Positions 3,046 through 32,000 of a stretch of DNA of 32,000 nucleotides are shown here, in pieces. The stretch is from Cereibacter sphaeroides 2.4.1 (GTDB lineage: Bacteria > Pseudomonadota > Alphaproteobacteria > Rhodobacterales > Rhodobacteraceae). Numbering within the stretch: position 1 is the first letter of the stretch; every line of letters starts with the position of its first letter. A program made the translations under genes and the position numbers. The stretch covers positions 1 through 32,000 of the forward strand of contig NC_007489.1 in the NCBI RefSeq assembly GCF_000012905.2. The letters run 5' to 3'. The notes below the pieces were generated by a model. It searched no databases, was not told where the DNA came from, and saw only the letters and a list, made by a program, of their open reading frames with translations.

Positions 3046-4455
3046 CTATCCAGAGTTCGTCTCGAGGGTCATCCGCATCAAGGTCAGCTCAAGCTTCCGC
3101 AAGCCTCGCTCCAGCAGATCCCGCGCCGCAGCGGGGGTTTCGGCCTCGACATAGAGCCGCATTTCCGGCGCATTGCCCGAGGGGCGGATGTGGACGATCC
3201 GTCCGGACGCGCAGGTCGCACGCAGACCGTCGGTACGATCGAGGCTGCGGATCTCCTCGCCGAGGATCGCCAGAAATCCTGCAAGCTCCTCAGGACTGGC
3301 CCCGAACTCCGCAACCAGCGCCTGGGCCTTCCCGTCCGGCACGCCCTCGAGCCGGTCGGCGGCCGTGAAGCGGGCCGGCTCGCGCCCGACCAGCGCGGCC
3401 AGCCCGCCGGCCGCCTGCGCGAGAGACAGCGGAGCCAGGAGCGGCAACAGGCTGTCCCGTGTCGGAAGTTGCGGCAGAGGACCTTCAAGGTGCGCGTCGA
3501 ACCCCAGCAGGAAGCCGCCGTTTGCCTCGTAGCCCACGCTGCGGCCCCCAGCCTCTTCCATGGCCGCGATGACGAAGGGCGAGCCGATCCGCGTCCGGAT
3601 CACCCGCCGGAACCGACCTCCCGCCTCGACGCCGGTGTTGGAACTGACCGGGGTGACCACCGTTTCGGCCCCGACCAGCGCCGCGGTGATCTGCCCCAAC
3701 AGGTCGCCCGGGACGATCTGTCCGCAGGCATCGGCCAGAAGCGGGCGATCCCCATCCCCGTCGGTCGAGATCAGGGCATCGAGGCGATGTTCGGCAGTCC
3801 AGGCCTTGATCCGGGCGCGCACCCCCTCCGGTACCGCCTCGGTGTCGACCGGGACGAACGCGGTCGAGCGGCCGAGTTCCACCACCGCCGCAGCACCCAG
3901 GGCACGCAGGGCGGCAAGCAGCAGGTCCCGACTGACTGCGCTGTGGCTCCAGACCCCGATGCGCAGGCCCGTCAGGGCTTCTGGCCCGAAGGCCGTGACG
4001 TAGCGGTGGACCCAGGCCTCGCCTGCGCTCGCATCGCAGGCGAGAGGCGCCGGCGGCGTCCGGGGCGGCAACGGCTCGCCGAGGCCCGACAGGATGGCGG
4101 CTTCGTCCGCCTTGGAAATCTCGCCGCCCGGACCATAGAACTTCAATCCGTTGCGGTCGGCGGGGATATGGCTGCCGGTCACCATCACCGCGCGCGCGCC
4201 TGCCCGCCTCGCGGCCAGCGCCAGCGCCGGCGTGGGCAGCGCTCCGCAATCGGTCACAGGAACACCCGCATGACGGGCCGCCTCCGCCACCACCCCGGCC
4301 AGGGCGGGCGAGGAGGGTCGCAGGTCGTGCCCCAGGTAAAGCCCTGCGCCCTGCGGACAGGCCCGCAGGAAGGCCCTGACATAAGCCGAGACCAGATCCG
4401 GCGTCAGCTCCGTCACCAGGCCGCGCAGGCCGCTCGTTCCGAACCTCGGCGCCAT
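3046..4455 (-). CDS. Phosphomannomutase/phosphoglucomutase (alpha-D-phosphohexomutase family)
   Basis: Motifs GTSGLRG, active-site loop TGSHIPADRNGLKF, metal loop DGDGDRPLL. Start chosen at MAPRFGTSGLRG (ATG 4453-4455), one nt after the manC stop (TGA 4457-4459). The track ORF extends to 4518. Confidence 0.85.
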   Translation of the reverse strand: MAPRFGTSGLRGLVTELTPDLVSAYVRAFLRACPQGAGLYLGHDLRPSSPALAGVVAEAARHAGVPVTDCGALPTPALALAARRAGARAVMVTGSHIPADRNGLKFYGPGGEISKADEAAILSGLGEPLPPRTPPAPLACDASAGEAWVHRYVTAFGPEALTGLRIGVWSHSAVSRDLLLAALRALGAAAVVELGRSTAFVPVDTEAVPEGVRARIKAWTAEHRLDALISTDGDGDRPLLADACGQIVPGDLLGQITAALVGAETVVTPVSSNTGVEAGGRFRRVIRTRIGSPFVIAAMEEAGGRSVGYEANGGFLLGFDAHLEGPLPQLPTRDSLLPLLAPLSLAQAAGGLAALVGREPARFTAADRLEGVPDGKAQALVAEFGASPEELAGFLAILGEEIRSLDRTDGLRATCASGRIVHIRPSGNAPEMRLYVEAETPAAARDLLERGLRKLELTLMRMTLETNSG

Positions 4456-4456
4456 C

Positions 4457-5884
4457 TCAGCCCCTCGCCCCCTGGCCGCGGGCATAGACATCCTCGTAGC
4501 GGGTGATGTCGTCCTCACCGAGATAGCTCCCGGTCTGGACCTCGATCAGCTCCATCGGCACCTTTCCGGGGTTCTCCAGCCGATGCCGCGCGCCGAGGGG
4601 GATATAGACCGACTGGTTCTCGGTCATGAGGTGGACATCGGCATCGATCGTGACCCGGGCAGTGCCTCGAACCACGATCCAGTGCTCGGAGCGGTGGAGA
4701 TGGCTCTGCAACGACAGCGCGCCCCCTGGATGGACCACGATCCGCTTGACCTGGAAGCGCTCGCCGAGCGCCAGCGTCTCGAAGAAGCCCCAGGGGCGGC
4801 GGTCGCGCAGGAAGCTCTCGGCCTGACGCGCGCCCTTTGCCTTCAGCGCCTCGACCGCCTGCTTCACCTCCTGCGCGCGCGAGCGCTCGGCGACCAGAAC
4901 CGCATCCTTCATCGCCACGGCGATGATGTTGTCGAGCCCGATGCCCACGAGTTCCACCCCCTCGCTGTCCGCACGCAGGAGCGCGTTGCGGCAGTCGATG
5001 GCGGTGGCCCCGCCGGAAAGGCTCACACCCTGCCCGTCTGTGCCCATCTCGAGCGCGACGGCATCCCAGCCGCCGAGATCGTTCCAGCTCCCCCGGAAGG
5101 GCACGACCGACAGATTGCGTGTCCGTTCCATCACCGCGTAGTCGATCGAGATCGGCTCGGCCTCTGCCCATGGCTGCGGATCGAGGCGGAGAAAGCCCAA
5201 GTCCGGAACCGCGCCCTCGACAGCTCTGCGCACCGGCGCAAGAAGCGCGGGCGCGTGCTCTTCGAAAGTCGCGAGAATGGTCCGGGCCGAGAAGAGGAAG
5301 ATCCCGGAATTCCAAAGAAAGCCTCCGCTGGCCAGCATCTCCTCAGCCCGGTCGAGGTCGGGTTTCTCGACGAACCGCCGGAGCGGGACTGCGGCGCCAT
5401 CTTCCGCCCCGTCGAGTTCCAGCCAGCCATAGCCGGTCTCCGCGCGTGTCGGCACGATGCCGAAGGTGACGATCCGGCCCGCGCGGGCCGCAGGCACCCC
5501 CTGCATCACGGCCGCCCGGAAGGCCGCAGGATCGGCGATCGCATGGTCCGAGGGCGCCACGACCATCAAGGCCTCGGGATCGCCGGCCGCGACATGGAGT
5601 GCCGCGGCCAGAATGGCAGGTGCGGTGTTGCGCGGCTCGGGCTCGATCAGGATGGTGCCAGGGTCAATGCCCGCCTCCGCAAGCTGCTCGGTCACCACGA
5701 AGCGGAAGTCCGAGCCGGTGACGATCACCGGCCGACCGAAGCCCGGCCCCGAGAGCCGCCGGGCCGAGGCCGCGAAAAGGCTGTGCTCTCCGAGGATCGA
5801 CGCGAACTGCTTGGGGTATCCCTTGCGCGACAGCGGCCAGAGCCGCGTGCCCGAGCCTCCACAGAGAAGGACCTGCGTGATCAT
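4457..5884 (-). CDS. manC: Bifunctional mannose-1-phosphate guanylyltransferase / mannose-6-phosphate isomerase (type II PMI, cupin C-terminus)
   Basis: N-terminal nucleotidyltransferase motif LLCGGSGTRLWPLSR. C-terminal cupin motifs (QSHLHRSEHWIVVRGTA, GARHRLENPG). Start at MITQVLL (ATG at 5882-5884) with GGAGAA about 9 nt upstream. The track ORF extends to 5926. Confidence 0.9.
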   Translation of the reverse strand: MITQVLLCGGSGTRLWPLSRKGYPKQFASILGEHSLFAASARRLSGPGFGRPVIVTGSDFRFVVTEQLAEAGIDPGTILIEPEPRNTAPAILAAALHVAAGDPEALMVVAPSDHAIADPAAFRAAVMQGVPAARAGRIVTFGIVPTRAETGYGWLELDGAEDGAAVPLRRFVEKPDLDRAEEMLASGGFLWNSGIFLFSARTILATFEEHAPALLAPVRRAVEGAVPDLGFLRLDPQPWAEAEPISIDYAVMERTRNLSVVPFRGSWNDLGGWDAVALEMGTDGQGVSLSGGATAIDCRNALLRADSEGVELVGIGLDNIIAVAMKDAVLVAERSRAQEVKQAVEALKAKGARQAESFLRDRRPWGFFETLALGERFQVKRIVVHPGGALSLQSHLHRSEHWIVVRGTARVTIDADVHLMTENQSVYIPLGARHRLENPGKVPMELIEVQTGSYLGEDDITRYEDVYARGQGARG

Positions 5885-6368
5885 GATGATGAGTTCTCCA
5901 TTCTTGTGCGAGAAGGGCTGCGGCAAGCCCCTGCCTGCCCCCAGGCTTTCGGCGAAGCCTGTCAGTGACGGCCCTCCAGACGGGGATCCCGCCCGCGGCC
6001 GCTCGCCTCCGCCGGAACCCTGGATGGTCTCGAGCGGGCGTTTGTGAACGTCCCTGCTGGAGGGACCTCGAAATCCGTAAAATCAGTGACCCCCGGCCGC
6101 TCGGCGGTCAGGGGGGCCGGAGAGACTGCGCCGCCCTCGAGCGCGCCGAACCGGTTCTCCCAACCAGTTCCGATGAAGAAACCGGATGCGGATCGGACGT
6201 CCCGGAAAGCAGGTAGCCGCTCCCTGCCCCCTTGGGGCCTTGTGAAGCACTGGTTTCAGATGATTTCCGGTGGCAGGACGGGAAATGCGGAATAGTACCG
6301 GTCCGCGCGGCAATGACCCGGAGGGCCGGCGGAGATGTCCCTCATCCTCAGGAGATGCCCCCCGGGGC

Positions 6369-7613
6369 TCAGAAGGACCTGGTCAGGTTGACGCCGATCC
6401 GGGCGCCGCGGCCGAAGCCCACCCTGTCCAACTCGAACCCCTGGTAGGCCACCAGCGCCTCGAGCGTCATGGCCTCGAACCGTCTGGTCAGGCCGATGTG
6501 GGCCATCACCCCGGAAACCCGTTCCGAACTCAGGCGGTGGTCTGGCAGGTCCGCATCGTTGATGACGTAGTGACCGATGCCCCAGTTCCAGTCTCCTCCT
6601 GCCAGGCGGTGGCTGACGCGCATCTCGATCGCCCGGCCATCGCCATCGATGGCGGCTCCCATCACGGTGCCGAAATTGACGTAAGGGTGCTTGCTGTTGG
6701 CATAGGCGGTGCCGGCGCCGCAGAAGCCGTTTGTCGACCGACCGATCCGGGTGTCGATCCCCTCCAGCGTGACGCGGGTCGGAGCCCCAGCGACTGTTCC
6801 CTCGAATTCGGCGCCCGCCAGGGTCATGAAACAGGAGGGCAACCCGCCGGCCTCGTCCTCGCCGATCGCCTGCAGGTAGACCCGGGCAGGCAGAACCGCC
6901 TCAGGCAGTCGGTAGGACAGGCCGAGCCCCGCCATCTGGTTGATCGAGGCGCTGTCGCCTTCGTTCGTGTCGCCCACAAGCGCGTCGAAGAACCCGTCTA
7001 GCGCGCTCGACGACGAAGTCCGGTCCCATTGCGCCGTCCGGACCAGTTCGGCCTCGAACCCCTCGAACGGCCGTATCGTCAGGCGCGCTCCGACAATGCC
7101 GGTATGACTGTGGTCATCCGGGGATGTGGCACCCACGAAGATCTCGCCGTCCCACGGCCCGATCCAGGCCAGAAGCGGCGAGGCGAAGGCGCTCGGCTCT
7201 GTCTTTGACAGGTAGACCGAGGGGAACGGCCGGGCGTTCCCCGACAGGATCAGCGAGGTATGCCGGGAGGGCGACCAGTGTCGCTCGATCGCGCCGACCC
7301 CCAGGGTCCAGGAGCCGAAGCGGCGCTCCAGGAAGCTGCCGTCAAGGCGAAGCCCCTCCCCGTCCGGCTCGGCCGATATCATGATCCTGTACCGGGCATC
7401 ATCGGTTGCGCCGCCATGGGAGAGGCGGAGGATGCCGCGATCGCCCCAGCCCAGAATCTCGCGCTGGCCGAGGAAAGGATCGGTCATCACGCCGAAGTCG
7501 ATGCGAGAGGCGGTGGGTTCCGCCAGGGCCGAGCTTGCCATGAAGAGGGCCAGGAACGCTGCCGGGAGGAGCCCTCCCGGGTTGTTCTTTCCGATGCGCA
7601 TGAAATGCCTCAC
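6369..7613 (-). CDS. wzi: Capsule assembly Wzi-family outer-membrane protein
   Basis: 414 aa. Signal peptide (AAFLALFMASSALAEP). Wzi-like segment ERHWSPSRHTSLILSGNARPFPSVYL. Beta-rich, with C-terminal ...GVNLTRSF (terminal Phe). Located next to manC/pmm. Confidence 0.7.
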   Translation of the reverse strand: MRHFMRIGKNNPGGLLPAAFLALFMASSALAEPTASRIDFGVMTDPFLGQREILGWGDRGILRLSHGGATDDARYRIMISAEPDGEGLRLDGSFLERRFGSWTLGVGAIERHWSPSRHTSLILSGNARPFPSVYLSKTEPSAFASPLLAWIGPWDGEIFVGATSPDDHSHTGIVGARLTIRPFEGFEAELVRTAQWDRTSSSSALDGFFDALVGDTNEGDSASINQMAGLGLSYRLPEAVLPARVYLQAIGEDEAGGLPSCFMTLAGAEFEGTVAGAPTRVTLEGIDTRIGRSTNGFCGAGTAYANSKHPYVNFGTVMGAAIDGDGRAIEMRVSHRLAGGDWNWGIGHYVINDADLPDHRLSSERVSGVMAHIGLTRRFEAMTLEALVAYQGFELDRVGFGRGARIGVNLTRSF

Positions 7614-8154: not shown

Positions 8155-8469
8155 ATGTATCATACCAAGCTTAAAGACCTGTCCCTCGAAGAGCTGAAAG
8201 AACTTCGGGTCGAAATAGCTCAGGCCATTACGGCCCAGGAAAGACATTGCAAGCAGGAGGCGCTGGAGCAGCTGCAAGCAAAGGCGCGCCAACTCGGGTT
8301 CAACCTGGAGGAACTTGCCCCTGCGATGCAGCGCGGGCAGGTCGGTGCCATGCTGCGATACGCCAATCCTGCAAACCCCGGGGAAGTCTGGCGCGGCCGT
8401 GGCCGCAAGCCACGCTGGTTCACGCAAGCCATGGCCGCCGGCAAGTCGCCCGAGGAACTCCAGATCTGA
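8155..8469 (+). CDS. H-NS family nucleoid-associated protein (HvrA/Spb type), paralog 1
   Basis: 104 aa. N-terminal coiled-coil (LSLEELKELRVEIAQAI). C-terminal H-NS DNA-binding motif YANPANPGEVWRGRGRKPRWF, ending ..PEELQI. Confidence 0.85.
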   Translation: MYHTKLKDLSLEELKELRVEIAQAITAQERHCKQEALEQLQAKARQLGFNLEELAPAMQRGQVGAMLRYANPANPGEVWRGRGRKPRWFTQAMAAGKSPEELQI

Positions 8470-9068: not shown

Positions 9069-9386
9069 ATGCCCAACCTCGAACTTGACGGCTTGTCCAT
9101 CAAAGAACTGAAAAACCTGCAGACCCAGGTTGCCAAGGCGATCTCGACCTTCGAGGAGCGCCGCAGGAAGGAGGCGTTGAGCGAACTGGAGGAAAAAGCC
9201 CGCGAGCTCGGCTTCAGCCTTTCTGAACTGACCGGCACCGCCCTCACCCGTCAGCGGGCAGGCGCCGCGCCCAAATATGCCAACCCGGACCAGCCCGAGC
9301 AGACCTGGTCGGGCCGCGGCCGCAAGCCGCACTGGTTCGTGGAGGCACTCGCAGCCGGAAAGACCGCCGAGGACCTCCAGATATGA
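9069..9386 (+). CDS. H-NS family nucleoid-associated protein (HvrA/Spb type), paralog 2
   Basis: 105 aa starting at MPNLELDGLSIKELKNLQ (ATG 9069, GGAG 8-11 nt upstream). Motif YANPDQPEQTWSGRGRKPHWF, ending ..AEDLQI. The track ORF begins at 9009. Confidence 0.85.
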   Translation: MPNLELDGLSIKELKNLQTQVAKAISTFEERRRKEALSELEEKARELGFSLSELTGTALTRQRAGAAPKYANPDQPEQTWSGRGRKPHWFVEALAAGKTAEDLQI

Positions 9387-9405
9387 CGGCCCCCGGAGGT
9401 TCTCC

Positions 9406-9490
9406 GGCAGTTTTGCCGGGGAACCCCGTATTACCGGGCCGGGAAGAGGAAACTCTACCCGTGGCCCGATAAACAGGTTGAGGCGGAGCA
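9406..9490. repeat. ~85-nt repeated element, copy A (starts 20 nt after the hns paralog 2 stop)
   Basis: ggcagttttgccggggaaccccgtattaccgggccgggaagaggaaactctacccgtggcccgataaacaggttgaggcggagca. Aligns by hand with 10381-10465 in the same orientation, about a dozen mismatches and no gaps. Confidence 0.8.
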
Positions 9491-10183: not shown

Positions 10184-10380
10184 TTCGCAGGATTGCTGGG
10201 AGTTCGGACTTCACGCCGCCGTGATACTCCTCAGTCGTCGGGGCCGCCATAGAAAAACAGTCTGAGCCGGGAGGCCGAACCAAGGAAATATCAAGCCACG
10301 AACTTGAAGCGCCTCCAAACCTCGGGCCTCCGGTTCGCATAAGCTGGTGACGGCTCCCAAGCATTCGCCGGGGGTTTATC

Positions 10381-10465
10381 GGCCATTTTGTCAGGGAACC
10401 CGGTATTATCGAGCCGGGAAGAGGAAACTGCACCCTTGGCCCGATAAACAGGCTGAGGCGGAACA
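10381..10465. repeat. ~85-nt repeated element, copy B
   Basis: ggccattttgtcagggaacccggtattatcgagccgggaagaggaaactgcacccttggcccgataaacaggctgaggcggaaca. Same orientation as copy A. The preceding tgacggctccc resembles the stop codon plus flank of hns paralog 2 (tgacggccccc). Confidence 0.8.
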
Positions 10466-11905: not shown

Positions 11906-12166
11906 ATGGCTTGCAGCCGCGAACAGGATGACGAGCTGGACCTGCTGCGCCGGCGGCAGCTTCTTGACGCCTCCGACCTTGGAGGGGTGATCCGTTTGCG
12001 CCGCGAGCGGCTCGGCATCGCGCAGTTCGAACTGGCATCCTTGGCCGGCATCGATCCCGGAAACCTCTCGAAGATCGAGCGTGGGAGCCGCCGCTCCCAT
12101 CTCGACACATATCTCAAGCTGTGCGGCATTCTCGGCATCGATCTCTTCGCCGAGGCGCGCTCATGA
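11906..12166 (+). CDS. hipB: HipB-type antitoxin, XRE-family HTH regulator
   Basis: 86 aa. HTH region LRRERLGIAQFELASLAGIDPGNLSKIERG. Its stop overlaps the hipA start (ATGA at 12163-12166). Confidence 0.85.
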   Translation: MACSREQDDELDLLRRRQLLDASDLGGVIRLRRERLGIAQFELASLAGIDPGNLSKIERGSRRSHLDTYLKLCGILGIDLFAEARS

Positions 12167-13518
12167 GGATGGACGTCTGGATGGAAGGGAGAGATACGCC
12201 CGTGGGCGTGCTGACCCGCTCGGAAGACAAGAGTCTGTCGTTCGTCTACGCCGGCGACATCGCGCCCGAGCACCGGATCTCGATGTCGTTGCCGATCACC
12301 TCGGAGCCATACAGCGATGCCGATTGCAGGGGCTATTTCGCGAACCTCCTGTTCGAGGGGCCGCAACTCGAACGGGTTCTCGATGGCTTCGGTCTCGACC
12401 GTGGCGACATCGGTGCGCTCCTGTGGCACCTCGGGGCAGACTGCCCGGGCGCCATCTCGATCACCCCCGAGGGCACGGGGCCCGGCAAGATGCCAGGAAG
12501 GTTCCCCGAGGACTACGAACGGCTTTCGGAGGCCCGGCTCCATCAGATCGTCCTGTCGCTGCATCGGCACCGCCGCATGCCCGAGGGAGAGCGCAACCCG
12601 TCACCCGTCGCGGGCGTTCAGGGCAAGATCGCCTGCCTCATGCTCGAGGGGGCGGTCTGGCTGCCCAAGGGCGGCTCCCGCGCACCAACAACACATATTC
12701 TGAAAGTGTCTCCGCACTTCGATCCTGACGTCACACGCCAGGAGACGATCTTGCTCCAGATTGCCTCCGAGATCGGGATCGATGCCGCCGAGACTCGGGA
12801 TCTCGTCTTCGATGTTGGGGGCACGCACATCAACGCGCTCCTGTCGACGCGCTTCGACCGCGATATCGAGATCGCAGAGGGGGCAGGAACAATTCGTCGC
12901 CGACACGCCGAGGACTTCTGCCAGGCGCTCGGTCTGCCACCGAGCCTGAAATACGAGCGCGATGCAGTGGATCCGCATCGCCGTTTCTCGGCCGCCGCCG
13001 TGAATGTCATCGCGGCACAGACGACGGTGCCGGCCCTGGTGACGAGGGATTTTCTGGCACAAACGATCTTCAACCTGCTCGTGGGCAACACGGACAACCA
13101 CGGCAAGAACACGTCGCTTCTCTACCGCGGACGGACGGTCCTCCTGGCGCCGCTTTACGATGTGGCGCCGGTGTTCATGGACAGGCGCGTGACGCACGAA
13201 TTCGCCTTCAGGCATGGCAGCGCGCGCTTCGCCGAGGACTTCGATGTCGATGCCCTGCGAGGGCTGCTGTCCGATCTCGGCTTCGGAAAGCCGCCCGTCG
13301 AGCGGGCGATGAAGCAGATCCAGCAGCTTGCGAAAAGGATATCCGAGCTCTCGGCCCGCCACGCCCCCAAGGGCCTTGTCGATGGTCTCCATGCCCAGGC
13401 GCGCGTGCTCGAGGATGCGCTCGATGTCGACTTCGGTCTTGAAGAACGAGATTACTACGACCGCGTCGTCAGAGATGAGGCGATCGAGGCAGCGGGTGGA
13501 TGGGGTACGTTAAGCTGA
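12163..13518 (+). CDS. hipA: HipA-family serine/threonine kinase toxin
   Basis: 451 aa from MRMDVWMEG. HipA N-terminal coupling region (LSFVYAGD..., CRGYFANLLFEG). Kinase catalytic motif LLVGNTDNHGKNTSLLY followed by LAPLYDV. Confidence 0.9.
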   Translation: MRMDVWMEGRDTPVGVLTRSEDKSLSFVYAGDIAPEHRISMSLPITSEPYSDADCRGYFANLLFEGPQLERVLDGFGLDRGDIGALLWHLGADCPGAISITPEGTGPGKMPGRFPEDYERLSEARLHQIVLSLHRHRRMPEGERNPSPVAGVQGKIACLMLEGAVWLPKGGSRAPTTHILKVSPHFDPDVTRQETILLQIASEIGIDAAETRDLVFDVGGTHINALLSTRFDRDIEIAEGAGTIRRRHAEDFCQALGLPPSLKYERDAVDPHRRFSAAAVNVIAAQTTVPALVTRDFLAQTIFNLLVGNTDNHGKNTSLLYRGRTVLLAPLYDVAPVFMDRRVTHEFAFRHGSARFAEDFDVDALRGLLSDLGFGKPPVERAMKQIQQLAKRISELSARHAPKGLVDGLHAQARVLEDALDVDFGLEERDYYDRVVRDEAIEAAGGWGTLS

Positions 13519-13733: not shown

Positions 13734-14153
13734 GTGACACATGACCCCATGATTGGGGATCTGTTGACAGTGAGCTACCGGAGCCGCGTGTGCCTTGCCG
13801 ATCCGGTGGCGGATCTCCTCGGCATCGTTCAGGCGAGCCGGGTCAGAAACCTGCGGCTCGGCATCACGGGGATCCTGCTCTACAACGGCTTTCATTTTGT
13901 GCAAACGATCGAGGGCCCGCAGAACGCCTGCCGGGAGCTGTTCGCGAGGATCTCGGAAGATCCTCGCCATTCCGACATCGTCGCCTTCGGCGTGAGAAAA
14001 ATAGAAAGACGACGGTTTCCGGACTGGTCCATGCGCCTGATCTCGCGGGCGGAACTGCTCGAGACCATGCCCGAGTTGCGGTTGCTCGATCTGAAGGAGC
14101 CTCAGGACATCGAACGGCTTCACGGCAGGGTGCTGGTGGAGCTCTCGTATTGA
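13734..14153 (+). CDS. Short BLUF-domain blue-light photoreceptor (BlrB-like)
   Basis: 139 aa. BLUF pattern: LTVSYRSRV, RVRNLRLGITGILLYNGFHFVQTIEGP, DPRHSDIV, FPDWSM. The start could also be the Met at 13749. Confidence 0.85.
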   Translation: MTHDPMIGDLLTVSYRSRVCLADPVADLLGIVQASRVRNLRLGITGILLYNGFHFVQTIEGPQNACRELFARISEDPRHSDIVAFGVRKIERRRFPDWSMRLISRAELLETMPELRLLDLKEPQDIERLHGRVLVELSY

Positions 14154-23210: not shown

Positions 23211-23603
23211 ATGAGGCACTGGATACTTCCCCTCTCCGGGATCCTGCTCGCCCTGCCCGTGCAGAGTTTTGCGGGCTGCTTGTCCTGCGATGACATCGTC
23301 CACCTGGGCCTGCCGGAGCAGGCCTGCTTCAGGACGCTCTTCGAGCAGGAGGGACTGCCGTCACAGGACGGTGCGCCCCACAGATACGATCTGTCGCGCT
23401 GCCTCGAGAGCCGGGCGAGCCTCGAGCGCGGCGGACTGGTCACCATGCCCGATCTGACCGGTGCGATTGCCGCAGCCTCCGGGATCAGGCACGAGAAGAG
23501 GGTCTATGTCCTCGATTATCCCTATGCCTCCTGCCTTGTCACGATCATCACCGGCATGCGCGGGCGCGCCGGAACGGTCGATCTGACCCGACTTTGTCCC
23601 TGA
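23211..23603 (+). CDS. Small exported protein, probable lipoprotein
   Basis: 130 aa. Signal peptide with a lipobox-like SFAGC. Seven Cys in total. Confidence 0.55.
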   Translation: MRHWILPLSGILLALPVQSFAGCLSCDDIVHLGLPEQACFRTLFEQEGLPSQDGAPHRYDLSRCLESRASLERGGLVTMPDLTGAIAAASGIRHEKRVYVLDYPYASCLVTIITGMRGRAGTVDLTRLCP

Positions 23604-23610
23604 GACGTCG

Positions 23611-24192
23611 ATGTTCGTCCCCCGCCTGACCCTGAAATGGATGGGACTGGCCGGCAGCCTCGTCAAAGGTGCCGCAGGACTTGCTGCGGCAGGATCCTTG
23701 TTTCTTGCCGCGGTCGAATATGCCGATCAGGGAAAGGCCGCACGCGCCGCCGAAACGATCCGGCTGATCGACCGGTGGGAGGAGACGACGAGCGGTGTTC
23801 TCACCGCCTATCGGAGCCTCGGCCAAAGATTGACCCTGGCGCTCGCGGAGCGAACTCCCGCCCTCGACGGCACGCGCCCGCCCGAAGAGCTCGCAGCCCT
23901 GCTCGTGGCGGACGTTCTCCAGCAGGAAGGTGCCGCCGACGAATTCGAAAGGATCGTCTATTTCTTCACCAGGCTCGAACTCTGCATCGAGGCCACGCTC
24001 TGCGACGAGCATACCGCAGCCATCTTCTTCTCCGACACGGTCGATACCTTCATGAAGAACTTCCGCAGCGCGGTTCTGGAACGCCGCAGATCCGACCCGC
24101 ATTTCGGTTCAGAAATCCGGAAACTCCAGATCCGGCTCAACCGCTCCGCCGCAGGCCAGGACGCGTTCGACCCCGACAGGCCTCTTCCGTAG
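23611..24192 (+). CDS. Membrane-anchored hypothetical protein
   Basis: 193 aa. N-terminal TM (AAGLAAAGSLFLAAV) followed by a helical domain. Starts 7 nt after the upstream stop. A vague resemblance to DUF4760-type proteins is not trusted. Confidence 0.5.
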   Translation: MFVPRLTLKWMGLAGSLVKGAAGLAAAGSLFLAAVEYADQGKAARAAETIRLIDRWEETTSGVLTAYRSLGQRLTLALAERTPALDGTRPPEELAALLVADVLQQEGAADEFERIVYFFTRLELCIEATLCDEHTAAIFFSDTVDTFMKNFRSAVLERRRSDPHFGSEIRKLQIRLNRSAAGQDAFDPDRPLP

Positions 24193-24207
24193 GGCGGGGT
24201 ACATGTG

Positions 24208-25656
24208 ATGCAGCCCCTGATCGCGAACATCGTCCAGCATCTCGGGGGGACACGCCTGTTTCGCCTGCTCCTGGTAGCCCTCGCCCTTCAGGCCGTGCTC
24301 GCCGCTCCCGCCGCCGCAGCCCGGCTGGCGCTCGTCGTGGGGATCGACGCCTACGCACATGTGCCCCGCCTGCAGAAAGCAGTGAACGACGCAGGTGCCG
24401 TGGCAGGAGCCCTGACGCAGGCCGGCTTCGAAACCGTGCTGCTCACCGATACCGACCAGCTCCAGCTCATGGAGGGGGTGACCGCCTTTGCCGCCAGACT
24501 GCGGCCGGGCGACGAGGCCGTCTTCTTCTTCGCCGGCCATGGCGTCGAGATCGCCGGGCAGAACTACCTGCTCCCTGCAGACGTGCCCGCCGTCACCTCC
24601 GGTCAGGAGCTCCTTCTCACCAGCCGCGCCCTCGAGATCGACACCCTGGTACAGGAGCTCCAGATACGCGGCACGAGAGTGACCCTGCTCATCCTCGATG
24701 CCTGCAGGGACAACCCGTTCCGCCGGCCCGGCGGGCGCGGGATCGGGGGCGCGCGGGGGCTGGCGCGGGTCGATGCGCCTGAGGGAAGCTTCATCCTGTT
24801 TTCTGCAGGCTCCGGCCAGACGGCTCTGGACCGCCTGGCCAACGACGAGGCTGCCCCGAACTCGGTCTTCACCCGCACCCTCCTGCCCTACCTCTCTGCG
24901 CCCGGTCTGGAAGTGCGCGAGATCTCGCAACGCGTGCGCTCCGACGTCCGCAAACTCGCGCTCACGGTTCAGCATGACCAGTTTCCCGCGGTCTACGACC
25001 AGCTGGACGGAAGCTTCGTGCTGATGCCCTCCAGCACCGCGGCCCCGCCGATGACGACGAGCGCGCCCGCCCCCGCCGTCGATCCCTGCGCTTCGGCCCG
25101 GCTCGACTGGCCGCTCGTCTCGGCCGTGCGAAGCGCCGCGGCCCTCGACGCCTTCGCGATGAGCCACGCCGACTGCCCCGTCTTCGCAGCCATGGCGCGC
25201 GAGATGCGCATGCAGATCGGCCTCCCATCCCCCCAACCGCAGCCGCTCGACCCTCCCCCGGCGCCTTCCCTGGAAGAGCGCGTGCGAGATTTCGTGGCCA
25301 GGATCGTGGCCGAATGGTCCTCGCCCAATGCGATCGCCCTGCCCCCGCTGGCCAGCTACTTCGCGCAAGACATGATCTACTACGGCAATCGCAAGACCAG
25401 AGCCCAGGTCGTGGCGGAAAAGACTGCCGTTGCGAAACGCTGGCCGGTCCGCGACTACCGCATCGAGGACGGCAGCCTCTTCGCCTCCTGCGCCGCCTCA
25501 CGCTGCGATGTCAGCGCGATCATCGACTGGCAGGCCTATGCGCCTGAGCGCAATGCCACGGCCTCCGGACGATCAAGCTACGAGGTGACCGTCGAAGACC
25601 TTCAAGGCACGCTCGTCGTCACCCGGGAGAACGGACAGACGATTCAGCGGAACTGA
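24208..25656 (+). CDS. Caspase-family (peptidase C14) protein with N-terminal signal/anchor and an uncharacterised C-terminal domain
   Basis: Hydrophobic N-terminus LFRLLLVALALQAVLAAPAAAA. Caspase core RLALVVGIDAY. Catalytic His context VFFFAGHG. Catalytic Cys context LLILDACRDNPF. Pro-rich linker, then a ~130-aa domain. A GTG at 24205 is an alternative start. Confidence 0.8.
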   Translation: MQPLIANIVQHLGGTRLFRLLLVALALQAVLAAPAAAARLALVVGIDAYAHVPRLQKAVNDAGAVAGALTQAGFETVLLTDTDQLQLMEGVTAFAARLRPGDEAVFFFAGHGVEIAGQNYLLPADVPAVTSGQELLLTSRALEIDTLVQELQIRGTRVTLLILDACRDNPFRRPGGRGIGGARGLARVDAPEGSFILFSAGSGQTALDRLANDEAAPNSVFTRTLLPYLSAPGLEVREISQRVRSDVRKLALTVQHDQFPAVYDQLDGSFVLMPSSTAAPPMTTSAPAPAVDPCASARLDWPLVSAVRSAAALDAFAMSHADCPVFAAMAREMRMQIGLPSPQPQPLDPPPAPSLEERVRDFVARIVAEWSSPNAIALPPLASYFAQDMIYYGNRKTRAQVVAEKTAVAKRWPVRDYRIEDGSLFASCAASRCDVSAIIDWQAYAPERNATASGRSSYEVTVEDLQGTLVVTRENGQTIQRN

Positions 25657-25773
25657 CGGCCGCGCCCGGTCGCACGGGGCCCCGGCCGCTCTCCGGTTTG
25701 ACGGTTTGGATCTTGCCTCTTCGCGAGGGAACGACAACAGAAGAGGGAGGAAAGAGGGAGGAAGCGGAACCGG
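25544..25773. repeat. Direct repeat R1 (last 113 nt of the caspase CDS plus 117 nt downstream)
   Basis: Aligns by hand with 28624-28843 in the same orientation. Contains a conserved stem-loop (cctcttc-17 nt-gaagagg, 25716-25746) and a 25-nt all-purine tract (25740-25764). Confidence 0.85.
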
Positions 25774-26070
25774 TCGCCGAGCGGTATGGGGCCGGTCTCG
25801 CCTCCTGACACCAGGGTGGTCTTCCGCTCCCAAGTCAGATGGCTGACTTCCGGATCGGCCGGATATTCGCCGGATCGGTGAGGAACATCCCGAGACTGCC
25901 CTTTGCACGCTCTCGCCGATCGAGCCGGGAGGTCCGCTGGCAAAGGCGCGTAGTCTGACCGGCTGCGCCGCCAGAGTTCGATCGACCTGCGGCCATGAGC
26001 CTGCTGGACGAGGGGCCTTGGACCGCATCAGGACTTTCCCGGGATTGCGATTTTCTTTGGAGAAATGCGG

Positions 26071-26421
26071 ATGCAACGGATTGCAATGCTGGGTGCGTTC
26101 CTTCTGATTGCCGATGCGGCCTTTGCTGGCTGCGTCGGCTCGGAGACGTTCCAGTCCTGTTGGGACGATGCCGGCAACAGCTACACGGTCAGCCGCTATG
26201 GGAACACGACCCATCTCGAGGGTTCCAACACCCGCACGGGCTCACGCTGGAGCCAGGAGAGCCAGACCCTTGGGAATACCACTTACCATCGAGGGCGTTC
26301 TGCCGATGGCGGAAACTGGAACATGACGCAGCAGTCGATCGGCGAATCGACCTTCTACAGCGGCCGCGACAGCGACGGGAAGGCGTTCAGCGGAGTTTGC
26401 GGCCCCTTCGGCTGCGACTGA
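26071..26421 (+). CDS. Small lipoprotein with Gly/Asn/Thr repeats framed by Cys pairs
   Basis: Signal peptide with lipobox (ADAAFAGC). Repeats of the type GNSYTVSRYGNTTHLEG, GNTTYHRG, GGNWNMTQQ. Ends GVCGPFGCD. GGAGA lies 7 nt before the ATG at 26071; the track ORF starts at 26065. Confidence 0.6.
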   Translation: MQRIAMLGAFLLIADAAFAGCVGSETFQSCWDDAGNSYTVSRYGNTTHLEGSNTRTGSRWSQESQTLGNTTYHRGRSADGGNWNMTQQSIGESTFYSGRDSDGKAFSGVCGPFGCD

Positions 26422-26519
26422 TCCTGGAGCGCAGGGCGCGTTCGGGCGATGCCAACTTTGGCCAGGACATCCCAGCACTCGAGCCGTGGCAAACGCCCCA
26501 TTTGCCGGCTGCAGCGCTC

Positions 26520-27608
26520 CTAGCGGATACGGAAACGCCAGGAGAGATCGAGGCCGACCTGCTGGTTGTCGAAAAGGTCGACACTCGATCGGGTGCGCAC
26601 ATATTGCACCGAAACATCGAGCACCGGCGTGATCTGACGGAAGAGGGCCACGCCGGTGCTCACATCGCTCTGGGCGATGCCGAACACCTGTCCGCCGCTG
26701 GCTCGGGACTGCCAGAGAGCGAGCCCGGTCACCGCGCCTGCCATGCGCCAGCGCAGGTCGGCAAAGACATCGAGCCGCTCGACGGTGCGGCCCTCCACGG
26801 CCTGTCCGACGCCTATGCCGAAGCGGGTGGCGAGGCCGGACCAGACCGAATGCCACTCAAGCCCCGCCCGTGGCTGACGGTACTCCGGCTGTCGGCGCTC
26901 GGTCAGGTCGAGGCGGATCTCATGATAGCTGTTCGGAGCGGTAAAGAGCCGGGCGAACTGGAGGGTGGCCTCGCGCTGCTCGTACTGACTGAGGCTGCGA
27001 TCGCTCTCGCGCTGGGTGAGGCAGAGGTCGAGAAAGCTCCAGCCCAGCAGGTGGTTGCGGCCGCATAGCTGAAGCCGCCGGTCGCGCCGCTCGTCACCGC
27101 TTTGCCGGGCGCGCGAGATGGTGCCATCCGCCTCGATCTGGAGAAACCGCCCGGATCCCCAGGCGAGACGTGCCTCGCTCTCGAAGAGGAGCCCGGCCGT
27201 GGCGCCGGATCTGGCAACATAGGCGGGATCGATCTCGAGCCAGCCCCCACCGAGCGCGATGCGCGAGCGGGCCAGCCCGCCGTTGAGGTTCGGCGACCAG
27301 CCCAGCGTCGGACTGAGCGATGCCTCCGTCCTCACCCAGCCGATCCCGCTCTCATGGTAGAACCCCTGGGCGATCATGTCTGCCTTCAGCGACAGGGTGC
27401 GGGCTATCGGGCTGGCCCCGTCGGCCAGCGCCCGGCCATGGGCCAGGATCCTCAGACGCTCGGAAACGACGAGATCACCGCTGCGCCCGAGGTCGTAGCT
27501 CTGGCTGCACGCGCCGCTCGGCGGAAGCGTCGCCGCCACCGCCAGTGCCAGCAGTCCCCGCCCGCGCAGCCGGAGCGGCCTGGCCGGTCCCCTTGTCCGG
27601 GTCATCAT
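26520..27608 (-). CDS. Outer-membrane beta-barrel protein, candidate Slam (DUF560-like surface lipoprotein assembly modifier)
   Basis: 362 aa. Arg-rich N-terminus plus signal peptide (LLALAVAATLPPSGAC). Beta-strand-rich, ends ...VDLFDNQQVGLDLSWRFRIR. Its start overlaps the stop of the upstream TbpB-like lipoprotein gene (ATGA). The family call rests mainly on this context. Confidence 0.5.
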   Translation of the reverse strand: MMTRTRGPARPLRLRGRGLLALAVAATLPPSGACSQSYDLGRSGDLVVSERLRILAHGRALADGASPIARTLSLKADMIAQGFYHESGIGWVRTEASLSPTLGWSPNLNGGLARSRIALGGGWLEIDPAYVARSGATAGLLFESEARLAWGSGRFLQIEADGTISRARQSGDERRDRRLQLCGRNHLLGWSFLDLCLTQRESDRSLSQYEQREATLQFARLFTAPNSYHEIRLDLTERRQPEYRQPRAGLEWHSVWSGLATRFGIGVGQAVEGRTVERLDVFADLRWRMAGAVTGLALWQSRASGGQVFGIAQSDVSTGVALFRQITPVLDVSVQYVRTRSSVDLFDNQQVGLDLSWRFRIR

Positions 27609-28492
27609 CGGTAGTTGAGCTGGCTGCCCCAGAAGATCCCATCCGAGTTCAGCCGCGCGCCATCGGCAGTGAAGACGCCCGAGGTCGTCATCTGCTCCTC
27701 CTGCCGGGTGAGGCTGGCCTCGTTGCCGCTGATGCTGCCGCGCAGATGGCCCTGGGCGGTCAGGATCTCGCCCCCCACCCGGGCGGTCTGGGTGATCGCG
27801 CCGCCGAAGGTGCCGGTAAGGATGTCGAAGGTCAGGTTCTCGGCCAGAATCTCGGTCTCGATGCGGGACGTCTCGTTGAGGCCGGTGCGCAGATGGATGG
27901 CTGCGGTGCCGGTATCGAAGTCGATGGTCAGGGCTTCGAGATCGCCCACGCCGGTCTGGACCTCGCCCCCATCGACTCTGGCATAGACCCGGAAGTCGCC
28001 GTTGCCGCGGAAGTAGTACTTGCCGCTCCCGATCGGGTTGCCGGCGCCATCGACGTTGTCGAAGGGGGCCTGGTCCGCGGTGAGCCGCAACACCTTCACG
28101 ACCTGCTCGTGGCCCTCGGCGTCCTTGTCGATCTGAGCGATGACCTCGACGAAGACCGAATTGGCGTAGGCGTTCTCCGCCTGCTCGATGAGGTTGCGAT
28201 AACCGGCCGGCGTGGCCGGGTTGGAATCGGCGAACTGGCCGAGCGCATCGTAATCCGCCCGGGTCGCGGCATTGTCGATGCGGACGCGGCTATAGCCGTT
28301 GTGGTCGGTCACGTAATGCTCGATCCCTTCGGTCACCACCTCGCGGCCGGTGAACTTCGGCTCGACGTTCTTTTCGCCGCTCCCACCCCCGCCGCAGGCG
28401 GTCAGGCCGCAGCAGATCAGGGTCCAGGCCAGCGACCGCAGCCGCTTTGACCACGGGCGGACCGCCGCACCCGGCGCACTCGTCAACATCAT
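27605..28492 (-). CDS. TbpB/fHbp-class surface lipoprotein candidate (C-terminal 8-stranded-barrel-type domain)
   Basis: 295 aa from MMLTSAPG (AAGGAG 7 nt upstream). Lipobox plus Gly linker LICCGLTACGGGGSGEK. C-terminal pattern GKYYFRGNGDF...LTIDFDTGTAAIHL...LTFDILTGTFGGAI...GHLRGSISGNEA...TTSGVFTADG...GIFWGSQ, typical of transferrin-binding-protein-like barrels. The track ORF extends to 28645. Confidence 0.65.
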   Translation of the reverse strand: MMLTSAPGAAVRPWSKRLRSLAWTLICCGLTACGGGGSGEKNVEPKFTGREVVTEGIEHYVTDHNGYSRVRIDNAATRADYDALGQFADSNPATPAGYRNLIEQAENAYANSVFVEVIAQIDKDAEGHEQVVKVLRLTADQAPFDNVDGAGNPIGSGKYYFRGNGDFRVYARVDGGEVQTGVGDLEALTIDFDTGTAAIHLRTGLNETSRIETEILAENLTFDILTGTFGGAITQTARVGGEILTAQGHLRGSISGNEASLTRQEEQMTTSGVFTADGARLNSDGIFWGSQLNYR

Positions 28493-28623
28493 GAACAACT
28501 CCTTCCCGCTCCTGAAGGCCTCGACGGGGCCAGTTTTAGCATGCTCGTCCGAAGGGAGGATGAGCATGGCCGAATTGGTAATTGGCTGACGCAATCGCGG
28601 CAATGTGCGCCCCTGTCTCAAGG

Positions 28624-28737
28624 CTTGAGCGCAGTGCCACGGCATCCGGACGATCGAGCTACGAGGTGACCGTCGAGGTCGTTCAAGGCGCGCTCGTCGT
28701 CACATGGGAGAACGGACGCACGCTTCAGCGGTACTGA
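28624..28737 (+). pseudogene. Orphan 3' fragment of a caspase-family paralog (coding part of repeat R2)
   Basis: In frame it reads LERSATASGRSSYEVTVEVVQGALVVTWENGRTLQRY-stop. The tail of the intact gene reads PERNATASGRSSYEVTVEDLQGTLVVTRENGQTIQRN-stop. No upstream caspase sequence is present. Confidence 0.75.
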
Positions 28738-28843
28738 CGGCCGCACGGGCTCGGGCCGCTTTCCGGTTTGACCGGTTTGGATCCTGCCTCTTCGCAAGGG
28801 AACGACAACAGAAGAGGGAGGAAGAAGGAGGAAGCGGAACCGG
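28624..28843. repeat. Direct repeat R2
   Basis: Copy of 25544-25773. Same stem-loop (28787-28817) and purine tract (28811-28834). One ~11-nt deletion after the stop codon relative to R1. Confidence 0.85.
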
Positions 28844-29054
28844 ACAAACCGGCAAAGCGCCCGACAGGACCGCCCCGCACCCCATCGCGGGCCGCAGACG
28901 GCGTCTGACCCGGCAGAGCCTGTTCGGCATGCCCGACAGGATGGCTGAGAACCGGCGGTCCGACATCCGGTGCTGGCAGTCTCTAACCTCCTGTTGTAGC
29001 TCCGAGAGCCGCCCGCGCACCAGGCTTTCGCGCCGCGGGCACCCGGTCCTGCCC

Positions 29055-29480
29055 TCAGGAGGAGCCTTCCCTGTTGAGAAGCTCCGCGATGCGCAGCGCC
29101 GTCTCGATCCGCACGTCCACATCGACGCGCAGATGCATCATCCGGGGATCACCGGAGGAGGGCGGGGACAGGGTGTAGGGCGGCGTGGAGGGGATCGGTT
29201 GCTCCCCGAGGGCCTCCAGGGACCGCTCGGACTCCCGTCGGAGCGCCGCGATCCCCGCCTCCAGCGGGTCTATCTCCCATGTCTCAACGCCGAACAGTTC
29301 GGCCAGAGCCAGCACTTTTTTGCGCGGTGGGCGCGTGAGGCCGCGACAGTACCGGTTGTAGGTGTCCCGGCTCATGCCCGCCCGGCGCGCCAGTTCCGCC
29401 TGGGACAGGCCGCTCCGCTCCGTCAGTTGCTGCAGGCGCCGCGACCAGACAGGCAGCGCCGCCCCCTCCTCGTCCATCAT
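29055..29480 (-). CDS. XRE-family (Cro/CI-type) HTH transcriptional regulator
   Basis: HTH segment LTERSGLSQAELARRAGMSRDTYNRYCRG. Start taken at MMDEEGAALPVW (29480) with AGAGGA 9 nt upstream. The track ORF extends to 29561. Confidence 0.7.
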   Translation of the reverse strand: MMDEEGAALPVWSRRLQQLTERSGLSQAELARRAGMSRDTYNRYCRGLTRPPRKKVLALAELFGVETWEIDPLEAGIAALRRESERSLEALGEQPIPSTPPYTLSPPSSGDPRMMHLRVDVDVRIETALRIAELLNREGSS

Positions 29481-29743
29481 CCTCTTTCGTCCTCTGCCAG
29501 CCCGCCGCCAGGCATGTCTCCAGTATGTCGTGAAACATGCCGCGTCAATCCGCGGCTTCATCGGACATATATGATTGATCCGCCAGTACCACGACCTGCG
29601 CCCCGTCGCCCGCCGAGAGCCGCTGAAACCATCGATTTTCGATCAAACCACTGATTTCACGTCGGAGTTTTCCACAGGAACACTCTCTCGACAGGGAAGC
29701 GGCGATTGACCGGCGCCCGGACGGCCACTTAAAATGCTCATAA

Positions 29744-31627: not shown

Positions 31628-31858
31628 GTGGATCGGGGATCGGTCTTCATGAACAACCGGACACAGGCCATCCGCCTGCCAAAATCAGTTGCCTTGCCGG
31701 AAGGCACGCGGAGCGTCGACATCGTCCGGCTGGGCAGAGCCTGGCTCATCGTGCCGAGCCAGGACAGCTGGGCCCAATGGTTCGATGAGGTCTCTTCGAG
31801 TGAAGACTTCATGGAGCGCCGGAAGCAACCGGACGCCGATGAGCGCGACGATCTCTGA
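31628..31858 (+). CDS. vapB: VapB-type antitoxin (AbrB/SpoVT fold)
   Basis: 76 aa from a GTG at 31628 (GGAGG 7 nt upstream). N-terminus VDRGSVFMNNRTQAIRLPKSVALPEG...VDIVRLGRAWLIVP matches the SpoVT/AbrB antitoxin pattern. The stop overlaps the vapC start (TGATG). The track ORF starts at 31601. Confidence 0.8.
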   Translation: MDRGSVFMNNRTQAIRLPKSVALPEGTRSVDIVRLGRAWLIVPSQDSWAQWFDEVSSSEDFMERRKQPDADERDDL

Positions 31859-32000
31859 TGCTGCGCTACATGCTCGACACGAACATCCTGATCTACACGA
31901 TCAGGAACCGGCCCGGCGAGGTCAGGGCAAAGTTCGAGGCCCATCACGGGACCATGTGCATCTCGGCCGCAACCGCGATGGAACTGATATACGGTGCGCA
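31858..32000 (+). CDS. vapC: VapC-type PIN-domain toxin (partial, runs off the window)
   Basis: Not in the ORF track because there is no stop in the window. Reads MLRYMLDTNILIYTIRNRPGEVRAKFEAHHGTMCISAATAMELIYGA, with the characteristic MLDTN acidic motif. Confidence 0.8.
   Translation, partial: MLRYMLDTNILIYTIRNRPGEVRAKFEAHHGTMCISAATAMELIYGA

Follow-up and report, generated by a model that had tools for sequence, protein, structure and literature searches.

A Plasmid-Borne Lipoprotein and Outer-Membrane Barrel Pair of Cereibacter sphaeroides 2.4.1: A Putative Slam-Like Module with Links to Cellulose-Synthase Loci in Rhodobacterales

Introduction

A lipoprotein and an outer-membrane barrel encoded side by side on plasmid d of Cereibacter sphaeroides 2.4.1 (R. 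sphaeroides 2.4.1) raise two questions, namely which function can be assigned to the pair and how its genes came to lie between two copies of the 3' end of a caspase-family gene. The window, i.e., the whole stretch of DNA that was analysed (contig NC_007489.1, positions 1 to 32,000; 32,000 nucleotides, nt), contains the gene of the lipoprotein (27605..28492; 295 amino acids, aa, from the RefSeq start) and that of the barrel (26520..27608; 362 aa), both located on the minus strand; the stop codon of the former and the start codon of the latter overlap in an ATGA (27605..27608), an arrangement consistent with translational coupling. An earlier note, made from the sequence alone, had described the two proteins as a barrel similar to Slam (surface lipoprotein assembly modulator, the translocon of type 11 secretion systems, T11SS) and a TbpB-like surface lipoprotein, and had proposed that they were captured by recombination between caspase-gene paralogs or replaced most of a tandem paralog.

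The explanation proposed here, which is considered moderately probable when all its parts are taken jointly, is that of a plasmid-borne cassette in which a Slam-like barrel and its cargo, having an accessory role in cellulose biology, have displaced a caspase paralog. Two additions are made to what is established on these systems: a compact barrel family, hitherto unrecognised, whose members pair with TbpB-type lipoproteins, and the link of this family with type III cellulose operons.

A TbpB-Type Lipoprotein with a Glycine-Rich Tether

The lipoprotein, the candidate surface cargo, is characterized by the lipobox LTAC followed by the sequence GGGGSG; in an alignment of 39 sequences this cysteine is conserved almost without exception and precedes a Gly-rich linker. 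A word-indexed search retrieved 50 homologues and those with source names all belong to Paracoccaceae or Roseobacteraceae. The AlphaFold2 (AF2) model built on the 39-sequence alignment, with a predicted local distance difference test (pLDDT) value of 85.8 and a predicted template modelling (pTM) score of 0.79, shows an all-beta C-terminal domain, and its 17 best Foldseek matches in the Protein Data Bank (PDB) are all HpuA, TbpB, or fHbp, hence all Slam cargo (E 2e-6 to 6e-3, probability 0.96 to 1.00). In particular, the top match is meningococcal HpuA (E 2.1e-6), together with TbpB lobes (E about 1e-5), and the template modelling (TM) score against the isolated TbpB C-lobe is 0.50; in the same search the scores of unrelated 8-stranded barrels (e.g., YceI, PsbO, and OmpX) are far lower. 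The predicted structure and its matches support a fold of the TbpB/HpuA/fHbp type, in which a handle is combined with an 8-stranded barrel. The earlier note had named both the lipobox with its linker and this type of fold, and both hold; it had also recognised no motif in the N-terminal part and expected a new ligand, but this half is not an idiosyncratic ligand domain, since it contains the longest conserved motifs of the family (PAGYRNLI, IEVIAQ, and LRLTADQxPF in the 39-sequence alignment).

Most homologues of the lipoprotein bear the RefSeq name "viral aspartic protease" (NZ_CP015292.1 and relatives) and those of the barrel the name "lipocalin". Both look like propagated misnomers and were rejected, since the proteins have no protease or lipocalin domain in Pfam or NCBIfam and no matching predicted fold, and a tblastn search of phages gave no homologue of the lipoprotein.

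A Compact Family of 14-Stranded Barrels

The AF2 model of the barrel protein, obtained with 74 sequences (pLDDT 93.9, pTM 0.86), is composed of a signal peptide, three helices, and 14 long strands (residues 90-361), the number that had been expected in the case of a Slam-like protein. The model supports the description of the 362-aa partner as a 14-stranded outer-membrane barrel with a short helical N-domain. The invariant residues of the family are N107, N109, and G111, located in the loop after strand 1, and the cysteines C182 and C196. Foldseek returns generic outer-membrane barrels, the best TM-scores being those to the 14-stranded OmpG (0.53) and CymA (0.46).

An exhaustive profile search of 1.84 billion representative proteins (E <= 1e-3) yielded a family of 322 representatives; among the 150 listed, the length is mostly comprised between 330 and 375 aa, and none has the 450-500 aa of DUF560-sized proteins. 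The barrel alignment contains no conserved 7-10-mer, and weak matches to Porin_4, OMP_b-brl, or Omp85 are seen in a small number of family members. A word-indexed search with the 74-sequence alignment at E <= 10, aimed at borderline DUF560 proteins, returned close relatives only. In fact, the standard domain models miss this compact barrel family.

Persistent Pairing of Barrel and Lipoprotein

The conservation of the pair was followed in 30 related genome loci collected with the lipoprotein alignment. The barrel gene is adjacent to that of the lipoprotein and co-directional with it in 29 of them, often with an overlap, and in the thirtieth the contig ends at the lipoprotein gene. The strict pairing and the translational coupling hold over roughly 35-100% identity, a pattern that, together with the TbpB_B_D partners of distant members, is the signature of cargo-translocon pairs (PMC5449769).

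The same association is found in very distant members of the barrel family, which have 21-26% identity to the window barrel, are recovered by profile search only, and each adjoin the gene of a lipoprotein with a Gly linker. The domain PF01298 (TbpB_B_D) is present above the cut-off in the neighbours at loci L040 and L078, with 34.1 bits versus a cut-off of 26 at L040; the neighbouring lipoprotein at L043 reaches 20.5 bits for TbpB_B_D and its gene shares a 4-nt overlap with the barrel gene, and that at L044 displays LTSGC-GGGGGG in its N-terminal region. Two TbpB_B_D proteins (32.1 and 16.4 bits) precede the barrel on a plasmid of Ketogulonicigenium vulgare, and one of them is called "transferrin-binding protein-like solute binding protein" in RefSeq. 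Since a canonical Slam cargo domain is persistently paired with the barrel across the family, which represents the strongest evidence, the barrel family most likely works like Slam, and the barrel of the window probably puts its lipoprotein on the cell surface.

Several results weigh against this assignment. The N-domain of the barrel protein is limited to about 50 aa after the signal peptide, with helices at residues 33-46, 50-62, and 68-80, and Pfam models of the tetratricopeptide repeat (TPR) match none of the 74 family members. PF04575 (DUF560) and the NCBIfam models give no match at E <= 1 for the window barrel or for any of the 74 diverse members, and the lack of PF04575 is the reason why the barrel is not classed as Slam; no Pfam family matches the window barrel, and PDB-chain sequence searches with the barrel and with the family profile gave no match. 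As for the lipoprotein, the only Pfam match is HphA_C with 15.9-16.2 bits versus a cut-off of 31, in two of the 39 family members, and the window protein has no profile match above the curated thresholds of PF01298, PF08794, and PF22829; NCBIfam and PDB-chain sequence searches, the latter with both protein and family profile, gave no match. The alignment of the lipoprotein profile with single TbpB_B_D-positive neighbours by hhalign is weak (41-48% probability).

The Slam-like description given in the earlier note is consequently upheld in part: architecture, pairing, and the TbpB_B_D partners of distant members agree with it, and the lack of PF04575 in all 74 members does not. The matches to DUF560 and TbpB profiles that it had anticipated did not appear, the window barrel having none and the lipoprotein only the sub-threshold one to HphA_C. 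Its statement that Slam systems are described mainly in host-adapted beta- and gamma-proteobacteria has to be corrected, since canonical DUF560 proteins are catalogued in many Rhodobacteraceae (PMC5449769 supplement; PMC12282271).

Linkage to Cellulose-Synthase Loci

The genomic context provides an indication of the process in which the pair takes part. Outside Cereibacter, bcs genes are located within 10 kb of the pair in 18 of 26 loci. The linked genes are bcsA, bcsB, bcsZ (glycoside hydrolase family 8, GH8), and the gene of a 450-500-aa TPR protein, called BcsK-like on the basis of its position and repeats; a diguanylate cyclase gene is often present as well. In five loci (L012, L016, L017, L030, and the metagenome locus L060), which represent at least four genera, the order bcsA-bcsB-bcsZ-TPR-lipoprotein-barrel occurs on one strand, with overlapping genes in the three best-resolved cases. 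A different arrangement, seen in Paracoccus among others, has the pair and the bcs operon transcribed towards each other, with a diguanylate cyclase gene ahead of the pair; a Gemmobacter plasmid combines the pair and the cyclase with an EAL protein, bcsA, bcsB, and GH8 (annotation of the Prokaryotic Genome Annotation Pipeline, PGAP). The linkage to bcs operons is a new finding; a literature search found no paper linking T11SS to cellulose. Since the pair is encoded in or next to bcs and diguanylate cyclase genes in most other Rhodobacterales, the cargo probably acts on cellulose or on the biofilm matrix.

Two observations count on the other side. In the reverse test, the pair was present in three of about 13 BcsK-anchored metagenome loci with adequate flanks, and the Cereibacter copies, namely the one in the window, those on other plasmids, and the chromosome-2 copy of strain WS8N, have no bcs linkage; within the 32-kb window there is no bcs gene. 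R. sphaeroides is the structural model organism for BcsA-BcsB and has a BcsK-type cellulose system. Because few BcsK-anchored loci contain the pair and the Cereibacter copies are unlinked, it looks like an accessory of cellulose or biofilm biology in part of the order and not like a universal Bcs component. The pair was also considered as the universal missing porin of BcsK systems, a role that was rejected owing to its absence near most BcsK-anchored loci.

Proposed Mechanism and Alternative Roles

In the mechanism that is proposed, the two genes would form an outer-membrane module conserved across Rhodobacterales, in which the barrel gene is translationally coupled to the lipoprotein gene. 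The lipoprotein would be exported through Sec, lipidated, and delivered to the outer membrane by Lol; the barrel would then move its partner to the cell surface, as Slam does in type 11 secretion, and the exposed cargo would act on cellulose or on the biofilm matrix, e.g., by binding or anchoring. The ligand of the cargo may accordingly be one related to cellulose.

A more ambitious version joins two claims. According to the first, the barrels of about 350 aa are an unrecognised compact Slam-like branch that DUF560 models do not see; according to the second, the Rhodobacterales sub-branch and its lipoprotein are a working part of BcsK-type cellulose secretion, either as surface anchor or organiser of the glucan or as part of the long-sought outer-membrane exit of systems lacking BcsC. 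The two claims together are possible, though hardly likely.

A further alternative, which is judged improbable, lets cellulose cross the outer membrane through the barrel in BcsK-type (type III) systems, where BcsC is lacking, and makes the lipoprotein a periplasm-facing accessory, comparable to AlgK with AlgE and to PelC with PelB, so that no cargo would be translocated. This role is in agreement with the presence of the pair inside bcsA-bcsB-bcsZ-TPR operons with overlapping genes in several genera, and near or convergent to bcs genes in many more, and with the statement of a review that for BcsK systems a porin is neither known nor supplied by nearby genes (PMC8892547). Moreover, some PgaA homologues also carry the PF04575 assignment, a hint of kinship between exopolysaccharide porins and T11SS barrels (PMC8406197). 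However, only three of the BcsK-anchored loci, about 13 in number, have the pair within reach, no Cereibacter copy is linked to bcs, and distant family members partner TbpB_B_D lipoproteins in loci without bcs among the called genes. A 14-stranded pore of the CymA type can pass oligosaccharides, but the known synthase-dependent exopolysaccharide porins have 16-18 strands; the window barrel has 14, its top 50 Foldseek matches include none of BcsC, PgaA, AlgE, and the PelB barrel, and the family profile gives no PDB sequence match.

Finally, it is very doubtful that the barrel is an ordinary small-solute porin associated with a periplasmic or inner-leaflet binding lipoprotein, whose TbpB-like fold would be a generic 8-stranded barrel without any protein translocation: the generic porins among the structural matches of the barrel, the weak Porin_4 or OMP_b-brl matches of a few family members, and the NCBI name "lipocalin" are in line with this role, whereas the best matches of the lipoprotein are specifically Slam cargo and cover both handle and barrel, those of the YceI, PsbO, and OmpX type being far lower, and the strict pairing, the translational coupling, and the TbpB_B_D partners of distant members constitute a cargo-translocon signature (PMC5449769).

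Origin of the Cassette and of the Direct Repeat

The second question concerns the position of the putative translocon and cargo genes between two copies of a repeat. The sequence 25542-25775 (copy A, plus strand), corresponding to the 3' end of the caspase gene and about 119 nt downstream, recurs in direct orientation at 28623-28845 (copy B, plus strand), as determined by a repeat finder and MAFFT alignment. BLAST aligns the two copies, 220-234 nt in length, with 85.4% identity in 233 columns (E about 1e-72); they are 14% diverged. The coding part, which in copy A is the final 113 nt of the caspase gene and in copy B consists of the last 37 codons and the stop codon (28624-28737), contains 14 mismatches in 114 nt (87.7% identity), with frame and stop codon retained in copy B; the encoded tail peptides differ in nine of 37 residues. 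The mismatches are spread evenly over the codon positions (5/4/5) and nine of the 13 differing codons are non-synonymous, so that there is no sign of purifying selection between the copies. The non-coding 3' part (25657-25775 versus 28738-28845) has ~92% identity with one 11-nt indel and two 1-nt indels, and no relationship is seen between the 60-nt stretches that precede the copies (21/60 identical).

Two copies of the repeat, and no more, are present in the window, and each of seven PLSDB records has two as well; all these records correspond to the roughly 105-kb plasmid of C. sphaeroides 2.4.1 and its derivatives, and BLAST did not detect the repeat in the other Cereibacter loci holding the cassette. 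The repeat is not a multi-copy or dispersed element, and copy B is a truncated caspase-gene tail. On these points the earlier note was accurate: the repeat in the same orientation, the tail peptides that it quoted, the ~11-nt indel, the three genes between the copies, and the ATGA overlap are all present, its hand count of ~15 coding mismatches is close to the 14 obtained here, and the identification of copy B as the tail of a caspase gene and not a generic repeat agrees with the presence of only two copies per plasmid and with a start that is no more than 4 nt from the edge of the shared DNA.

Conservation of the non-coding 3' flank of the repeat (about 92%) is no lower than that of the coding part (88%). 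A 7-bp inverted repeat, CCTCTTC...GAAGAGG, is present there, with a purine-rich GGAGGAA run after it. An Rfam search of this flank gave no match; its folding is not better than that of shuffled controls in copy A (z = +1.0) and shows a modest excess in copy B (z = -2.2). A convincing promoter or terminator was looked for and was not found.

The edges of the cassette were defined by blastn comparison with other plasmids. The DNA in common with C. azotoformans plasmids extends over 26100-28627 (85-87% identity) and that in common with the plasmid of Rhodobacter sp. NSM over 26310-28623; the breakpoints are at 28627 for L007 and L008 and at 28623 for L009, and L007 and L009 break at the same point when compared with each other. 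The common breakpoint is located ~130 bp upstream of the lipoprotein start codon, at the end of the 5' leader and promoter region of this gene (28493..28627, minus strand), which marks the cassette edge; homology with three other plasmids ends at most 4 nt from where the caspase remnant begins. Because this breakpoint is common to several plasmids in different contexts, the small lipoprotein gene, the barrel gene, the lipoprotein gene, and the leader are a discrete module of about 2.5 kb.

The abutment of the cassette edge on the caspase remnant within 4 nt fits a replacement, in plasmid d, of most of a second caspase-family paralog, of which the last 37 codons and the 3' flank would remain. 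The capture by recombination between caspase paralogs proposed earlier is plausible; the location of the edge at the start of the remnant speaks in its favour, and the arrangement that should have preceded it, a caspase gene directly before the XRE gene without the cassette, was not found in any of the relatives compared. The module has none of the features of a transposon or integrative element, i.e., transposase or integrase, terminal inverted repeats, and short target duplication: between the repeats neither the open reading frame (ORF) list nor the RefSeq annotation contains a transposase, integrase, or recombinase, and terminal inverted or direct repeats at the cassette ends are limited to chance-level matches.

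An alternative origin, in which an element bringing a surrogate 3' end integrated site-specifically at the end of one caspase gene, in the manner of islands at tRNA genes or at the 3' ends of genes, so that the two copies would be attL and attR, is highly improbable. Direct repeats do bracket foreign DNA, with one copy completing the intact gene and the other being a displaced tail that keeps frame and stop codon; however, genes of an integrase, recombinase, or transposase are absent from the interval between the repeats, terminal inverted repeats are lacking, the cassettes of other plasmids are devoid of the repeat and therefore carry no surrogate tail, no identical core longer than about 25 nt exists at 86% identity, and ~290 nt of unrelated DNA separate copy A from the cassette.

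On a metagenome contig (L044, 156-3703), a distant pair is located directly after the genes of a 408-aa protein, with weak phage-integrase SAM-like matches, and of a 139-aa ORF, and a further integrase gene is found 3 kb off; the pair may travel on integrative elements in some lineages.

Neighbouring Genes in the Window

The intact caspase-family (Peptidase_C14) gene is located at 24205..25656 on the plus strand (PF00656, E 4.4e-26; RefSeq "caspase family protein", 24208-25656). Its product has an N-terminal hydrophobic or signal segment, and it is preceded by two small genes, one for a predicted lipoprotein of 130 aa (lipobox FAGC), the other for a protein of 193 aa that matches DUF4760 weakly; the two small genes and the caspase gene (23211-25656) suggest an envelope-located caspase operon.

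The small lipoprotein of the cassette (26065..26421, plus strand; 118 aa) is characterized by the lipobox FAGC and by internal repeats of the GN(S/T)T..G type. Three or four loose repeats can be distinguished (GNSYTVSRYGNTTH..., GNTTYHRG..., ESTFYSG...), and the C-terminal end is CGPFGCD. Pfam and NCBIfam searches gave no match for this protein, which among the related loci is found in L007 and L008 only, with 82-83% conservation; its association with the pair is confined to the plasmid copies of Cereibacter, and a truncated form is present in Rhodobacter sp. NSM. On the other side, the cassette is flanked by the gene of an XRE-family helix-turn-helix (HTH) regulator (29055..29561, minus strand; Pfam HTH_31, HTH_3), a homologue of which (78% DNA identity) is near the cassette in a C. 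azotoformans plasmid too, in another arrangement.

Among the other genes of the window, a surface-polysaccharide set at 3046-7601 encodes phosphomannomutase, mannose-1-phosphate guanylyltransferase/isomerase, and a Wzi-family capsule assembly protein. An ISNCY transposase is located at 47-1423, toxin-antitoxin pairs at 11906-13518 and 31628-32000 (an HTH regulator with a HipA-domain protein; VapB-VapC), and a BLUF-domain protein at 13749-14153. Another direct repeat, of 98 nt and 84% identity, occurs at 9393-9490 and 10368-10465; one of its copies begins 7 nt past the stop codon of the second gene in a tandem H-NS family pair (8155-8469 and 9069-9386), and it may be the remnant of a further H-NS duplication.

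Significance

Nearly all that is known of Slam and T11SS biology derives from DUF560 searches and from the scavenging of metal or haem by pathogens. If a second barrel family, with at least 322 sequence clusters, shares the Slam architecture and the cargo type, surveys based on DUF560 undercount such systems; it would also offer, for mechanistic studies, a minimal translocon with almost no TPR domain. The pair co-encoded with bcsABZ-bcsK in many Rhodobacterales is a genetically testable candidate for the outer-membrane partner of BcsK, for which none is known (PMC8892547). R. sphaeroides 2.4.1 itself holds the plasmid copy described here, and the related strain WS8N holds the copy on chromosome 2. 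The repeat is a minor point, as the record of a plasmid cassette displacing a gene.

Comparison with Known Systems

With type III (BcsK-type) cellulose secretion the pair shares its location in or beside the bcsA, bcsB, bcsZ, and TPR genes in 18 of 26 related genomes; in contrast, it is not among the described Bcs subunits and is absent near most of the sampled BcsK loci. The exporters AlgK-AlgE, PelC-PelB, PgaA, and BcsC are similar in that the genes of barrel and lipoprotein come last in a polysaccharide synthase operon, behind that of a TPR protein. However, the window barrel has 14 strands versus 16-18, BcsC, PgaA, and AlgE are outside its top structural matches, and the lipoprotein has a predicted TbpB-like beta fold instead of the TPR structure of AlgK or the ring-forming alpha/beta structure of PelC.

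The differences from Slam/T11SS concern size, N-domain, and context. The members of the window family have ~350 aa versus the ~490 aa of classical Slams, PF04575 is found in none of 74 members, and the N-domain of the window protein is composed of three helices versus a multi-TPR domain; the family context is cellulose synthesis and cyclic di-GMP versus metal or haem uptake. Among the Slams found by Hooda et al. none lacked the TPR N-domain (PMC5449769), and the loci of the family also differ from the DUF1194/thyX locus of the marine cluster 3 T11SS (PMC12282271).

The likenesses to Slam/T11SS comprise both partners. In Slam, a periplasmic helical N-domain is followed by a 14-stranded barrel (PMC5449769), and set against this description the predicted 14-stranded barrel of the window likewise comes after a helical periplasmic segment. 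The two genes are an adjacent and often overlapping pair, and the cargo is a lipoprotein with a Gly-rich tether, a handle, and a C-terminal 8-stranded barrel, as indicated for the window protein by its model. Finally, the partners of distant family members are bona fide TbpB_B_D proteins.

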